Positions 2,574-9,913 of a DNA stretch of 36,546 bases are shown here, piece after piece. The stretch lies in the IMG/VR virus record IMGVR_UViG_2648501206_000003. The stretch is one strand, 5' to 3'. Every line of letters starts with the position of its first letter. The first letter of the stretch is position 1. Position numbers and translations under genes: made by a program. Origin of the DNA: a virus (taxonomy: Duplodnaviria > Heunggongvirae > Uroviricota > Caudoviricetes). Below the pieces are notes generated by a model. It made no database searches and was not told where the DNA came from. It worked only from the letters and a program-made list of their open reading frames with translations.

Positions 2574-2631
2574 AAAAAGGGCGGCAGAGCAGTCACGGAG
2601 TAAAACTGATACCGCCAAACGTCACCAGAAA
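2574..2631 (-). ncRNA. dicF: DicF-like small RNA (53 nt plus U-tract terminator)
   Basis: Minus-strand sequence TTTCTGGTGACGTTTGGCGGTATCAGTTTTACTCCGTGACTGCTCTGCCGCCC followed by TTTTT. It lies in a ~420 bp non-coding gap between the ydfC-like and dicB genes, exactly where dicF sits in Qin. Sequence match is from memory, not alignment. Confidence 0.6.
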
Positions 2632-3506: not shown

Positions 3507-3688
3507 GCTGACCTCATTTCCCCTTAACGCTGGGGTAGCGGAACAAAAACCTGCTGCATAGTTATTAAAGTTGAACCCTGCCGTCATGTTCTTACGCCTC
3601 GGGCTGGCTACTTAACCCCTGACCACTGCCTGGTAACTCGAAGTATTGCCCTGCATTCTGTGGGGCGGGGTGGGTTGGTATGAAAAGA

Positions 3689-3729
3689 AGGATACCCATA
3701 GGTATTTAAAAAGTAAATACCCATGGGTA
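3689..3729 (-). promoter_or_regulatory. Leftward early promoter (pL-like) with two repressor operator sites
   Basis: 12-bp near-palindromes TACCCATAGGTA (3693..3704) and TACCCATGGGTA (3718..3729). On the minus strand they read -35 TTTACT, 17 bp spacer, -10 TATCCT, with the operators abutting the -35 and overlapping the -10. Same motif as the sites at 4227..4262. Confidence 0.5.
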
Positions 3730-3771
3730 ACTTTTTGCGGTGTCTTAACTGGTGACTAGTTGTTTGGTGAG

Positions 3772-4191
3772 CTATGATGCGTTTTGTGCTTTCTTTTTAC
3801 GGATTTCTTCGTAGATCATATTGTAATACTGTTTTTTCTCTTCAAGAGTTTTTAATAAGTTATCCGCTTCACTTTCTGGCAGTTCGTCTAAGAGATCTAA
3901 AAAAATACGTTGTCGTGGCGTTAGAACCCTTGTTTCATAACTGGAGGCTGTGTTCGTTGATGATGAAACGATACCATCCATCCATCCCCGGGGTAACCCA
4001 AAGGACTCTTCGATAATCTCCACCATATCATCAGCGATCCGTTTTTTTCCCTTTTTCCCCTCTGGGTACAACATTCTTGATACATAAGAAGGCTCGCGCC
4101 CGATCTTTCTGGCCACGTTAACCGCTTTACCATCGCATTTCTCATCACGAATTTTGATGAGTTGCTGTCGTCTAAATTCATATTTGTCCAT
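3772..4191 (-). CDS. Prophage repressor (DicA/RacR-like, 139 aa, no S24 peptidase domain)
   Basis: Track ORF with an N-terminal HTH-like segment (GKAVNVARKIGREPSYVSRML). C-terminal pattern LTPRQRIFLDLLDELPESEADNLL resembles DicA as recalled. Divergent from the Cro-like gene and flanked on both sides by operator repeats. Confidence 0.6.
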   Translation of the reverse strand: MDKYEFRRQQLIKIRDEKCDGKAVNVARKIGREPSYVSRMLYPEGKKGKKRIADDMVEIIEESFGLPRGWMDGIVSSSTNTASSYETRVLTPRQRIFLDLLDELPESEADNLLKTLEEKKQYYNMIYEEIRKKKAQNAS

Positions 4192-4197
4192 AGGTAA

Positions 4198-4266
4198 ATA
4201 ATAGATGCGATTACCGCAAGGTAAACAACCTGTGGGTATTGACTTTTGTTTACCTGTGGGTATTCT
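4198..4266. promoter_or_regulatory. Divergent promoter/operator region: two operators, rightward pR-like promoter, leftward pRM-like promoter giving a near-leaderless repressor mRNA
   Basis: Operators AACCTGTGGGTA (4227..4238) and TACCTGTGGGTA (4251..4262). Plus strand: -35 TTGACT (4239..4244), 16 bp spacer, -10 TATTCT (4261..4266), then AAGGAG (4281..4286) and the ATG at 4292. Minus strand: -10 TATTAT (4203..4198) only 6 nt before the repressor ATG (4191). Confidence 0.5.
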
Positions 4267-4291
4267 TTACTGTGTTTACTAAGGAGTAGCT

Positions 4292-4573
4292 ATGGAAGAA
4301 TTAAGAATATTTCTCAATTCTCTTTCGTCAGATGAACAGCGTATGTTTGCATGCGAGTGTGGTACCAGCATCGGTTATCTAAGAAAGGCATTGAGTAAAG
4401 GTCAAGTGTTAGGGGCATCGTTATGCGTCCTTATTGAGCGAGCCAGTAATGGTGAAGTTACACGTCAGCAACTAAGGCCTTTTGATTGGATGAATATTTG
4501 GCCCGAGCTGGAAGATACCAAAACGTTAACACAACCACTTTCTAGGAGCTTGATTCATGAAAATCAAGCATGA
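4292..4573 (+). CDS. Cro-like HTH regulator (YdaS-family-like)
   Basis: Track ORF with strong RBS AAGGAG; motif GEVTRQQLRPFDW is typical of YdaS/Cro-type proteins; first gene of the rightward operon, divergent from the repressor. Confidence 0.6.
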   Translation: MEELRIFLNSLSSDEQRMFACECGTSIGYLRKALSKGQVLGASLCVLIERASNGEVTRQQLRPFDWMNIWPELEDTKTLTQPLSRSLIHENQA

Positions 4574-4982
4574 ACACATCCGCATGGCGATGAATGCCTG
4601 GGCGCATCCGGACGGTGAAAAAGTTCCGGCAGCTGAAATAACCAGGGCTTATTTTGAACTGGGTATGACGTTCCCAGAACTGTATGACGACAGCCATCCG
4701 GAAGCCCTGGCTCGCAATACCCAGAAAATTTTCCGCTGGGTAGAGAAAGACACCCCTGATGCAGTTGAAAAAATTCAGGCGTTGTTACCAGCGATCGAAA
4801 AGGCAATGCCACCTTTGCTGGTGGCCAGAATGCGCAGCCACAGTTCAGCTTATTTTCGGGAGCTGGTGGAGACGCGGGAGCGACTGGTGAGAGACGCTGA
4901 TGATTTTGTCGCAGTGGCAATCGCCGGTTTCAATCAGATGAACCGTGGTGGCCCGGCAGGAAATGCTGTGGCAGTACATTGA
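4557..4982 (+). CDS. YdaT-like protein (proposed CII functional analogue in Rac-type prophages)
   Basis: Track ORF; N-terminus MKIKHEHI... recalled as YdaT-like; overlaps the Cro-like stop by 17 nt; sits second in the rightward operon as in racR-ydaS-ydaT. Confidence 0.5.
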   Translation: MKIKHEHIRMAMNAWAHPDGEKVPAAEITRAYFELGMTFPELYDDSHPEALARNTQKIFRWVEKDTPDAVEKIQALLPAIEKAMPPLLVARMRSHSSAYFRELVETRERLVRDADDFVAVAIAGFNQMNRGGPAGNAVAVH

Positions 4983-6743: not shown

Positions 6744-7430
6744 ATGACCCCAATAAAAATATTTATGACTATTGCTGATTTCAAACGGCCTAAATTGGAG
6801 CTCCCAAACGGGGCAAACAAACTACTACTGCACTCTTGCTGTGCTCCATGTTCCGGTGAAGTGATGGAGGCGCTTCAGGCCTCGGGAATCGACTACACCA
6901 TCTTTTTCTACAACCCGAACATTCATCCTCAGAAAGAGTATTTAATTCGTAAGGATGAAAATATTCGCTTTGCTGAACAACACGGCGTGCCGTTTATCGA
7001 TGCTGATTACGACACCGACAACTGGTTTGAACGTGCCAAAGGAATGGAATGGGAGCCTGAGAGGGGGATCCGTTGTACCATGTGTTTTGACATGCGTTTT
7101 GAGCGGACAGCGTTGTACGCTGCTGAAAATGGTTTCAGTGTGATCAGCAGTTCACTGGGCATTTCACGCTGGAAAAATATGCAGCAGGTTAACGAGTGTG
7201 GGCGGCGAGCTGTTGCGCATTATCCGGGTATGGTGTACTGGGATTATAACTGGCGCAAGCAGGGCGGCTCGTCCCGTATGATTGAAATCAGCAAGCGCGA
7301 AAAATTCTATCAGCAGGAATATTGTGGCTGTGTGTATTCTCTGCGCGATACCAATCTACACCGCAAATCTCAGGGACGCCCTCTTATCAAAATTGGCCAA
7401 CTCCACTACGGAAAAGAAGAGAAGGAGTGA
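6744..7430 (+). CDS. DUF208 / QueH-like protein (candidate epoxyqueuosine reductase family); cargo gene
   Basis: Track ORF; motifs [11 protein letters not shown] and FFYNPNIHP recalled as signatures of the DUF208/QueH family; further Cys pairs (CTMC, CGC). Start could be 6744 or 6765. Confidence 0.5.
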
Positions 7431-7610
7431 TTTTATGGATCACCTTTCTGATTGATTTCATATTGGCGAGGTGACGTGAGTTAAGTAGAATGGCTGCGGG
7501 TGCTTGAGGCTATCTGTCTCAGGCATGAACACTGAAAGGCAGATAGAGAAAAGCCCCAGTTAACATTACGCGTCCGGCAAGACGCTTAACATTAATCTGA
7601 GGCTCAATCT

Positions 7611-7823
7611 ATGAACGGCAAATCTAGGTTAGCCTCTTACGTGCCGAAAGGCAAGGAGAAGCAGGCTATGAAGCAGCAAAAGGCGATGTTAATCGCCCTG
7701 ATCGTCATCTGTTTAACCGTCATTGTGACGGCACTGGTAACGAGGAAAGACCTCTGCGAGGTACGAATCCGAACCGGCCAGACGGAGGTCACTGTCTTCA
7801 CAGCTTACGAACCTGAGGAGTAA
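7611..7823 (+). CDS. mok: Mok (modulator of killing) reading frame, N-terminally extended over hok
   Basis: Track ORF of 70 aa whose last 51 residues are the Hok toxin, as in chromosomal mok/hok loci. Confidence 0.6.
   Translation: MNGKSRLASYVPKGKEKQAMKQQKAMLIALIVICLTVIVTALVTRKDLCEVRIRTGQTEVTVFTAYEPEE
7668..7823 (+). CDS. hok: Hok-family type I toxin (51 aa, HokD/RelF-like)
   Basis: MKQQKAMLIALIVICLTVIVTALVTRKDLCEVRIRTGQTEVTVFTAYEPEE, near-identical to HokD as recalled; AAGGAGAAG upstream of the ATG; stable hairpin GGCGGGGGAGAAATCCCTCGCC downstream (7831..7852). Confidence 0.85.
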   Translation: MKQQKAMLIALIVICLTVIVTALVTRKDLCEVRIRTGQTEVTVFTAYEPEE

Positions 7824-8517: not shown

Positions 8518-8794
8518 GGCATTCTGGTTTACAATACGCACGCCAGCCTGAACAACTGGCACCTGCTGCGCCAGCAGAGACAACCGATGGCGCACGATAC
8601 CAAATTACACAATTCTAATGATTCTGCCGTCTTTGCCAGCAGGCGCGGACGGCGTTTTCACGTATTCAAATCAGACTGGTTCCAGCATCCTCCATGCACT
8701 GAAGAGCAGGCGGAATGGATAATTCAGTGTTACCGCAGGCGCGGATACGAGGTTAAGAAAGCCCTCAGCCTCGATTATCGTCACTGGATAATCT

Positions 8795-9913
8795 ATGTCA
8801 GGCTCCCTTATTCCGAACGCCCACCGCGCCCATCCCGCACATACCAGCAACGGATCTGGAGGTAACGTGCGGATATTACTTCGACCTGTTCTGGTACCGG
8901 AACTTGGGCTGGTGGTCCTTAGGCCGGGCCGTGAATCCATGCAAGTATTTCATAACCCTCGAGTGCTGGTGGAGCCTGAACCGAAAAGCATGCGCGGTCT
9001 GCCGTCCGGAGTCGTCCCTGCCGTTCGCCAGCCGCTGGCGGAGGATAAATCATTACTGCCATTTTTCAGCGATGAGCGGGTGATTCGTGCTGCTGGTGGT
9101 GCTGGTGCATTGTCTGACTGGCTGTTGCGCCATATTAAATCCTGCCAGTGGCCACACGGCGATTATCATCACAGCGAAACCGTCATTCACCGTTATGGTA
9201 CCGGCGCAATGGTGTTGTGCTGGCACTGCGACAACCAGCTGCGTGACCAGACATCCGAATCACTCGGGCAACTTGCTCATCAAAACCTGTCAGCATGGAT
9301 GATTGACGTCATCGGTCACGCAATAAGCGGTACGCAGGAGCGTGAATTATCTCTGGCTGAATTATCCTGGTGGGCGGTCCGCAATCAGGTGGCGGACGCG
9401 CTACCGGAAGCGGTATTACGTCGTTCGCTGGGGTTGCGTGCGGAAAAAATCCGTTCAATGTACCGTGAAAGCGACATCGTACCGGGAGAGCAGACCGCCA
9501 CCAGCATACTGAAGCAGCGCACAAAAAATCTTGCGCCGCTGCCTCACGCCCACCAGCAAAACCCGCCACAGGAAAAGACGGTGGTCAGCATTGCTGTTGA
9601 TCCGGAGTCTCCGGAATCTTTCATGAGGCGACCTAAACGTCGCCGTTGGGTAAATGAGAAATATACGCGCTGGGTGAAGACACAGCCGTGTGCGTGTTGT
9701 GGTCAGCCAGCCGACGATCCCCATCACCTGATTGGTCACGGTCAGGGAGGGATGGGAACAAAGGCCCACGATATTTTCACGCTACCGTTGTGCCGGGAAC
9801 ATCACAACGAACTTCATGCGGATCCGCTGGCGTTCGAAGAAAAGCATGGTTCCCAGGTTGATTTAATTTTTCGTTTTCTTGATCACGCCTTTGCAACCGG
9901 CGTGCTCGGGTAA
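8795..9913 (+). CDS. DUF968-domain protein (YdfU-like); N-terminus uncertain
   Basis: C-terminal region RPKRRRWVNEKYTRWVKTQPCACCGQPADDPHHLIGHGQGG...LPLCREHHNELH recalled as DUF968 (YdfU of Qin). Possible alternative start at 8939. An overlapping upstream ORF (8587..8865) in another frame may be a separate gene or a frameshifted N-terminus. Confidence 0.55.
   Translation: MSGSLIPNAHRAHPAHTSNGSGGNVRILLRPVLVPELGLVVLRPGRESMQVFHNPRVLVEPEPKSMRGLPSGVVPAVRQPLAEDKSLLPFFSDERVIRAAGGAGALSDWLLRHIKSCQWPHGDYHHSETVIHRYGTGAMVLCWHCDNQLRDQTSESLGQLAHQNLSAWMIDVIGHAISGTQERELSLAELSWWAVRNQVADALPEAVLRRSLGLRAEKIRSMYRESDIVPGEQTATSILKQRTKNLAPLPHAHQQNPPQEKTVVSIAVDPESPESFMRRPKRRRWVNEKYTRWVKTQPCACCGQPADDPHHLIGHGQGGMGTKAHDIFTLPLCREHHNELHADPLAFEEKHGSQVDLIFRFLDHAFATGVLG

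Follow-up and report, generated by a model that had tools for sequence, protein, structure and literature searches.

The 36,546-nucleotide stretch of IMG/VR virus record IMGVR_UViG_2648501206_000003, analysed over its full length and referred to here as the window, carries at positions 3689-4266 a gene for a 139-amino-acid (aa) repressor that is flanked on either side by clusters of a short palindrome. To the left of this region lie ydfA (DUF1391), ydfB, ydfC, the DicF RNA gene, dicB and an exonuclease gene, and to its right a divergent Cro-like gene, a YdaT-family gene, replication genes, hok/sok, Q, lysis genes and HK97-type head and tail genes. The gene order around the repressor is that of the cryptic prophage Qin around dicA, and the window is identical to a lambdoid prophage of approximately 40 kb in Escherichia coli VTB97379v, which is integrated beside tRNA-Ser/mtfA. 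The region is very probably the immunity switch of an E. coli lambdoid prophage of Qin/DicA layout, built on the plan known from phage lambda. The positions of its parts are collected in Table 1.

Table 1. Positions of the switch components and associated features in the window.
Feature	Position	Strand	Remarks
OL1 operator TACCCATAGGTA	3693-3704		Exact motif match; overlaps the PL spacer and -10
OL2 operator TACCCATGGGTA	3718-3729		Exact match, perfect palindrome; abuts the PL -35
OR3 operator TACCGCAAGGTA	4212-4223		Exact motif match; overlaps the -35 of the PRM-like promoter
OR2 operator AACCTGTGGGTA	4227-4238		One mismatch to TACCNNNNGGTA; one half-site imperfect
OR1 operator TACCTGTGGGTA	4251-4262		Exact match; overlaps the PR spacer and the first two bases of its -10
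PL	3689..3717	-	-35 TTTACT (3717..3712), 17-nt spacer, -10 TATCCT (3694..3689); read from the sequence; predicted to drive the ydfA/ydfB/ydfC-dicF-dicB operon
PR	4239..4266	+	-35 TTGACT, 16-nt spacer, -10 TATTCT; consensus scan match, 9/12
PRM-like promoter	4198..4225	-	-35 TTTACC (4225..4220), 16-nt spacer, -10 TATTAT (4203..4198); consensus scan match, 9/12
Repressor gene	3772..4191	-	Open reading frame, 139 aa
Cro-like gene (YdaS family, 93 aa)	4292..4573	+	Shine-Dalgarno AAGGAG
CII-equivalent gene (YdaT family, 141 aa)	4557..4982	+	Pfam YdaT_toxin, E 7e-10
Predicted YdaT operator TTGATTCATGAAAATCAA	4550..4567		Junction of cro stop and ydaT start; only exact TTGATT-N6-AATCAA in the window
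OL palindrome	3683..3729	-	37-bp palindrome made up of OL2, OL1 and four flanking bases at either end, with a T-rich run after it
DicF antisense small RNA gene	2579-2630	-	Rfam RF00039, 76.7 bits; lies upstream of dicB within the PL operon, as it does in Qin

The motif TACCNNNNGGTA has four exact matches in the window where 0.29 would be expected, a number that is reached in none of 100 shuffles, and all four fall inside 3693-4262, that is, within 570 bp. Tolerating one mismatch raises the number to 13 where 6.9 would be expected, and the eight of these that lie outside the region are at chance level; equally good copies are thus not scattered through coding DNA. A preliminary description of this stretch had listed four sites, in pairs on the two sides of the repressor gene, and likened them to the left and right operators (OL and OR) of lambda. 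All four are present where they were placed, the one at 4227 being a one-mismatch version, but the list was incomplete, as it missed the exact site TACCGCAAGGTA. There are therefore five operators in total, OL1 and OL2 beyond the end of the repressor gene and OR3, OR2 and OR1 in the 100-bp repressor-cro intergenic region, where the three TACC-N4-GGTA sites overlap PR and the PRM-like promoter. OR2 exactly occupies the 13 bp separating the two divergent -35 hexamers, with its centre 41.5 bp upstream of the repressor ATG.

The promoters proposed in the same description are also borne out: PR and the promoter with the TATTAT hexamer are recovered by a consensus scan, and PL is visible in the sequence. 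The coordinates place one operator against the -35 and one over the -10 at both PR and PL, as had been claimed. Indeed, the two promoters have the same architecture, [OR2]TTGACT-16-[OR1 overlapping]TATTCT on one strand and [OL2]TTTACT-17-[OL1 overlapping]TATCCT on the other, so that the geometry of OL2 toward PL is that of OR2 toward PR. A terminator-like match at 4218..4206 falls inside the PRM spacer and was treated as spurious.

The arrangement is not peculiar to this prophage. When an alignment of the repressor's N-terminal domain was used to scan genomes, one for each species, 48 loci were obtained, from Enterobacterales, Aeromonas, Neisseria, Burkholderia, Xanthomonas and others, all gamma- and beta-proteobacteria; adding the window and the phages mEp043 and CharmingMan brings the set to 51. 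Three OR sites stand in register, at about 72, 47 and 32 nt ahead of the ATG, in 34 of the 48 loci and in 37 of the 51. Taken singly, the OR1 register (-71 to -75 from the ATG) is occupied by a site in 45 of the 51 and the OR3 register (-32/-33) in 43, and a downstream pair of sites, 25-26 bp apart, occurs within the fetched flank of 28 of the 48. In mEp043 and CharmingMan the same motif appears three times upstream of the repressor, with spacings of 25 and 15 bp, and twice downstream, 25-26 bp apart. The OL/OR reading is thus supported by the recurrence of motif, spacing and register in these two phages and in dozens of distant loci.

The family consensus is TTACCyryrGGTAA for OR1, CAATACCnnnnGGt.ATT for OR2 and ATTTACCnnnnGGTA for OR3. 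The imperfect half-site of OR2 (GGTT, in repressor-sense orientation) is itself kept across the family, as is the TTGAC immediately flanking OR2. The central four bases alternate between pyrimidine and purine in 87-88% of OR1 and OR2 sites and in 21% of OR3 sites. On the protein side the family opens with the pattern MDKYE...REPSYVSRMLYPEGK..KKRIADDM...LPRGWMDG, for which there is no Pfam model and which the window repressor fits; 219 representative clusters carry this N-terminal domain at E ≤ 1e-10 in 1.84 billion proteins. Nearly all loci with operators also have a Cro homologue, and the CI N-terminus, Cro and the operators appear to be inherited as one module. Judged from these alignments, the DNA-binding domain, Cro and the operator/promoter cassette of about 100 bp seem to have hardly changed between E. 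coli on the one hand and Neisseria, Burkholderia and Xanthomonas on the other.

A scan of IMG/VR with the N-terminal domain gave only copies 100% identical in that domain, and these were used for variation within the population, not for divergence. Among 80 E. coli prophage copies obtained in this way (L008-L087), 9 of 12 central N4 positions vary, compared with 1 of 24 half-site positions. In OR1 and OR2 the middle 4 bp are hypervariable, changing for example from CACA to TTTG, and the half-sites are fixed. On the speculative reading of the repressor C-terminus given below, immunity specificity might evolve through these non-contacted central bases rather than through the half-sites. In about a quarter of the same 80 copies OR3 is weakened to TACCTTGCAGTA.

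The -10 hexamer TATTAT ends 6 nt ahead of the repressor ATG at 4191, and no Shine-Dalgarno-like sequence is found in the 16 nt upstream of that codon. The ATG is also the first possible start in frame, with no in-frame start upstream, and homologues open with the same MDKYE, conservation beginning at residue 1. Across 49 family loci a -10-like hexamer stands 6-7 nt ahead of the ATG in 57%, and no other offset from 0 to 30 exceeds 8%. Shine-Dalgarno sequences are rare in these loci, and the distance from the -10 to the ATG is held across highly diverged members while the hexamer sequence itself drifts. Because the -10 ends so close to the ATG, the repressor transcript is predicted to be leaderless, with its start at or adjoining the A of the ATG, and this prediction is well supported. 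A leaderless, autoregulated transcript had been suggested in the preliminary description, and the conserved 6-7-nt spacing speaks for it. There is, moreover, an experimental precedent, as the paaR2 mRNA of prophage CP-933P was shown to be leaderless by 5' RACE, N-terminal sequencing and mass spectrometry (PMC8630535).

The repressor is annotated in RefSeq as a hypothetical protein (WP_000362155.1) and matches the PHROG 5736 transcriptional regulators with an E-value of 4e-70. At E ≤ 0.01 it has no Pfam match, HTH_3, HTH_31 and Phage_CI_repr included, and a sequence search of the Protein Data Bank (PDB) returned only chance-level matches (ADAR Z-alpha domains, E ~0.08). An AlphaFold model (mean predicted local distance difference test score 81.6) divides the protein into an N-terminal helix-turn-helix (HTH) domain of five helices at about residues 1-72, with the HTH itself formed by helices 23-30 and 34-41, a disordered linker (73-91) and a C-terminal helical hairpin (92-138). 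In a structure search the best matches to this fold are Xre-type HTH repressors, the top one being Rep of the Salmonella phage Rep-Ant complex 5d50, which is marginal (E 1.5e-3, template modelling score 0.46).

The two halves of the protein have different relatives. Residues 1-86 are 65% identical to the N-terminus of mEp043 CI, the C-terminus is about 70% identical to that of phage Tritos CI, and residues 89-134 align with DicA 84-129 at 33% identity over 46 residues (BLASTP). The C-terminus contains a LxxxExxLLxLFxxLPExE motif that is common to GtgR of Gifsy-2 and aligns with DicA. With 139 aa, an N-terminal HTH and a C-terminal helical module bearing LxxLFxxLPExE, the protein has the make-up of the short repressors of this type. 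Of the two comparisons suggested earlier, DicA is thus related through the C-terminal 46 residues only, and RacR is unrelated, its best BLASTP alignment having E 2.3 over 7 residues.

Since the repressor groups with mEp043 at its N-terminus and with Tritos at its C-terminus, a recombination point appears to lie between its two domains. Outside the gene, homology to Tritos begins again at ~3672, which is about 10-15 bp downstream of the -10 of PL, and, on the right side, within ydaT. PL and OL therefore belong to the immunity-specific segment, which is bounded by PL on one side. Most relatives with the same N-terminal domain are 220-300 aa long and carry Peptidase_S24 (PF00717), and short forms devoid of S24 make up 10 of the 48 species-level loci, in addition to the E. 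coli form in the window. The distribution suggests that the C-terminus has been swapped repeatedly, among S24 peptidase, DicA/Gifsy-type hairpins and other short tails. One relative of 301 aa, in a Neisseria metagenome-assembled genome (L114, 1801-2703), has the MDKYE-type domain followed by a second HTH_3 and Peptidase_S24.

The product of the divergent gene matches Pfam YdaS_toxin at E 9e-6, which is below the curated cutoff, and the PDB entries 8c7k/8co2, named 'Cro', at E 1e-10; it is 73% identical to mEp043 Cro. The YdaT of the window is nearly identical to PDB 3c4r and matches CP-933P YdaT (PDB 8bt1) at E 1e-80. The TTGATT-N6-AATCAA sequence found at the cro/ydaT junction is the one that footprinting revealed for the YdaT of CP-933P, at the same junction of genes (PMC9986795), and by analogy its presence here implies an establishment promoter under YdaT control.

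On the other side of the switch, 43 nt past the repressor stop codon, the two OL sites lie within a palindrome that would give the repressor transcript a 16-bp hairpin followed by UCCUUCUUUU, a match in a terminator scan. The hairpin folds at -24.1 kcal/mol (z = -4.9), and none of 200 shuffles folds as well; the U-tract after it is imperfect. It is put forward, tentatively, as a candidate intrinsic terminator that would shield the toxic dicF/dicB operon from repressor transcription.

Taken as a whole, the data are accommodated by the following model. The 139-aa repressor would bind, through its N-terminal HTH, five 12-14-bp palindromes with half-sites (T)TACC/GGTA(A), presumably as one dimer per site. 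From OR1 it would shut the rightward cro-ydaT-replication operon and from OL1 the leftward ydfABC-dicF-dicB operon, with OR2 and OL2, 24-25 bp off, aiding cooperatively. Bound at OR2, between the divergent -35 hexamers, it would activate its own promoter as lambda CI does PRM, while OR3, which has an atypical centre and lies on the -35 of the repressor promoter, would mediate negative autoregulation at high repressor levels. The repressor mRNA would begin at or beside its AUG. Cro, a YdaS-family protein, would compete for the same operators, and YdaT, as the CII equivalent, would act from its own operator at the cro/ydaT junction to establish lysogeny. Induction would most likely be brought about by an antirepressor, or by stochastic or stress-driven flipping of the kind described for DicA/DicC.

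How this switch might be induced is constrained by the composition of the repressor. RecA-driven self-cleavage of the 139-aa protein is excluded, as judged from its sequence, because it does not have the S24 domain that relatives with the same N-terminus carry. The preliminary description was right on this point: the 3772-4191 reading frame encodes 139 aa with no peptidase or other Pfam domain, the C-terminus is modelled as a helical hairpin and S24 is found only in relatives. No exact LexA box (CTGT-N8-ACAG) is present in the window or in the whole prophage, and the 18 one-mismatch boxes are at chance level (15.4 expected). Searches with tblastn against the whole prophage found no homologue of Rem, the antirepressor that inactivates DicA, and a PHROG scan of ten small or unnamed open reading frames found no antirepressor family among them. 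DicA is also reported to flip spontaneously or under urea or heat (PMC10448788). The Gifsy repressors are inactivated by the small antirepressors GfoA/GftA; Lemire et al. put DicA in the Gifsy class and describe two heteroimmune Gifsy repressors that share antirepressors (PMC3121763). It is possible, if somewhat short of probable, that the window repressor is induced by the docking of an antirepressor that is supplied in trans or is of an unrecognised type. A more speculative and rather doubtful extension makes the C-terminus an exchangeable input module setting the inducing signal, with the DicA-type version answering a non-SOS trigger such as an antirepressor in trans or stress.

A 92-aa open reading frame at 8587-8865 (+) sits in the position that rem occupies in Qin, between hokD and a DUF968 gene, behind a terminator-like hairpin, and belongs to PHROG 1212, of unknown function. 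It was rejected as a counterpart of Rem, to which it has no similarity, and as a specific partner of the repressor, since its homologues are spread over many phages with other repressor types, among them N15, PY54 and SPN3UB.

Several observations weigh against the model or against parts of it. PL agrees with the consensus at only 8 of 12 positions, which is under the threshold of the scan. OR2 is symmetric, about 41 bp from both predicted starts, and alone would not occlude PR; because it is equidistant from the two, repression of PR would have to rest mainly on OR1. The match to the DicA model NCBIfam NF007257 has an E-value of 2.8e-5 but scores 23.9 bits, against a curated cutoff of 101, and covers residues 86-136 only. 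A literature search found WP_000362155 mentioned in no paper. All informative loci have CI as well as Cro alongside the sites, so that the comparison does not separate which of them, or whether both, bind there. It is accordingly conceivable, if very unlikely, that the TACC-N4-GGTA sites are primarily or only Cro operators and that the 139-aa protein recognises something else or works through protein-protein contacts. The comparative signal fits this equally well, given a Cro homologue with the sites at nearly every locus and the 73% identity of the window's Cro to mEp043 Cro, and the footprints of PaaR2 and YdaS in CP-933P overlap and are not resolvable into separate sequences (PMC8630535). 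However, four Klebsiella loci (L090, L092, L093, L096) have the CI domain and the sites at -73/-33, together with an OL pair or single site, but no divergent open reading frame of at least 50 aa, and the sites there therefore track CI without Cro. Operators are, moreover, common to both proteins in every lambda-type switch studied, and an OR2 at -41.5 with an OR3 on the -35 makes sense only for a protein that regulates itself. The Klebsiella arrangement may put the same repressor domain to another use, possibly one without Cro: about 110 bp upstream of position 1801, L090, L092, L093, L095 and L096 retain sites at -73 and -33 and lack OR2. In L095 a divergent open reading frame of at least 50 aa is present and is unlike Cro.

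The leaderless start has its own competitor, in which the repressor transcript comes with an ordinary leader mainly from an upstream promoter, either a YdaT-dependent PRE-like promoter at about 4550-4620 or read-through, and TATTAT is incidental AT-rich sequence. CP-933P has an alternative, YdaT-controlled start of the repressor operon near the YdaT operator (PMC9986795), the operator is present in the window and the PRM -35 TTTACC matches only 4 of 6 consensus positions. Against this stand the 16 nt free of any Shine-Dalgarno sequence, the conserved distance from -10 to ATG, conservation from the first residue of MDKYE, the missing upstream in-frame start and the leaderless PaaR2 precedent; PRE-type and leaderless PRM transcripts can also coexist, as they do in lambda. 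A transcript made mainly from upstream is thus improbable. Somewhat less so, though still unlikely, is a decayed module in a cryptic prophage, whose repressor, like DicA of Qin, just silences the toxic, host-acting dicB and dicF and has no role in lysis-lysogeny. The left operon is indeed of the Qin type (ydfABC-dicF-dicB), and the integrase of the identical prophage copy in NZ_CP178682.1 (L002, 2152-3202, just left of the window) is annotated as frameshifted, so that the element may be excision-defective, the rest looking intact. Furthermore, neither an antirepressor gene nor a Rem homologue nor a LexA box was found in the whole prophage, which leaves the induction step unsupported. Yet the remainder of the prophage appears whole, its genes covering replication, Q, lysis, terminase, portal, capsid, tail and tail fibres; sequenced free phages, Tritos and vB_EcoS-673R7 among them, share its left operon and its repressor C-terminus; and the parts of the switch are all intact and retained at high identity in hundreds of E. 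coli genomes (see below). A working immunity switch of the lambda plan is therefore preferred.

Set beside known systems, this switch is ordinary in kind and a well-formed example; precedents are lambda, CP-933P with PaaR2/YdaS/YdaT, DicA/DicC and the Gifsy phages. The novelty lies in this particular family of repressors, in its operator and in the breadth over which the cassette is conserved. Lambda likewise has divergent repressor and cro genes with three operators between them, of which one is in the PR spacer and -10, another sits at about -42 beside the PRM -35 and the third is on PRM; it also has further operators clustered at PL beyond the repressor gene, and a repressor start codon at the transcript start, which in the window is predicted. 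The spacing between the centres of OR1 and OR2 in lambda is 24-25 bp, as here, and lambda CI at OR2 activates PRM from the position that OR2 has in the window (-41.5). Unlike those of lambda, which are 17 bp long, the operators of the window are 12-14 bp (TTACC-N4-GGTAA); there are two OL sites instead of three, and OR2 and OR3 are only 15 bp apart. The repressor has no sequence similarity to lambda CI and ends in a helical hairpin of 50 residues where CI has an S24 self-cleaving oligomerisation domain, YdaT takes the place of CII and no N gene follows PL.

The prophage CP-933P of E. coli O157:H7 is similar in having a short repressor of roughly the same size, a repressor-cro intergenic region of 97 bp (100 bp in the window), a YdaS-type Cro, a YdaT-type CII, OL/PL on the far side and the same gene order; the leaderless repressor mRNA is demonstrated there and predicted here. 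PaaR2 activates PRM at low levels and, according to earlier work cited in the same study, octamerises in solution (PMC8630535). The operators of CP-933P are unrelated, being 18-bp inverted repeats with the consensus GTTTAGTAA, and its repressor is followed by the toxin-antitoxin pair paaA2-parE2, for which the window has no counterpart. The DicA/DicC system of Qin in E. coli K-12 shares with the window the order repressor then ydfA-ydfB-ydfC-dicF-dicB, a repressor of similar length (135 aa), the 33% identity in the C-terminal 46 residues and the lack of a RecA cleavage site or domain in either protein. By contrast, the DNA-binding N-termini are unrelated, and the operators of the two systems differ for that reason; the Cro of the window is YdaS-like and not DicC, and its prophage has no Rem homologue.

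The closest match of the cassette is with mEp043 and CharmingMan, which have the same TACC-N4-GGTA operators at -72/-47/-32 with an OL pair, and a -10 that also ends 6 nt ahead of the ATG. The CI of mEp043 differs, however: it is 228 aa long, and its annotation likens the C-terminal part to 933W CI. That phage also has a lambda-type CII and N. Finally, GfoR, GfhR and GtgR of the Gifsy phages and Rep of SPC32H are HTH repressors of about 138 aa, likewise without a self-cleavage domain, and antirepressors inactivate every one of them (PMC3121763; PDB 5d50). The similarity to GtgR is confined to 21 residues (E 0.001), and no LexA-controlled antirepressor gene was found in the window's prophage.

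With this analysis a 'hypothetical' protein of RefSeq gains a predicted function, an operator sequence and a full regulatory map, and a family of CI DNA-binding domains for which Pfam has no model is defined, with an operator layout conserved across two classes of Proteobacteria. The self-cleaving C-terminus of mEp043 and the DicA-type one here constitute a natural domain swap, and thereby a clean setting in which to ask what is sensed by the DicA/Gifsy-type C-terminus. Antibiotics that induce the SOS response should not induce the prophage by way of repressor cleavage, a point relevant when prophage induction or dicB/dicF expression is predicted for clinical and veterinary E. coli.

Of 5,426 complete E. 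coli genomes, 822 (~15%) contain at least 80% of the 701-bp region 3600-4300, and in most of these 822 its identity is at least 95%. The integrase is annotated as frameshifted in strain Ecol_881 too. The unannotated 1.6 kb past the tail-fibre genes, outside the window, contains spurious small open reading frames only. Within the window, the early-right genes include one for the epoxyqueuosine reductase QueH (6765-7430, +), an unusual tRNA-modification cargo, and the hok/sok type I toxin-antitoxin locus lies at 7498-7823 (+), with a sok RNA match (RF01794, 111.9 bits) and hokD annotated at 7668-7823 in the identical genome.

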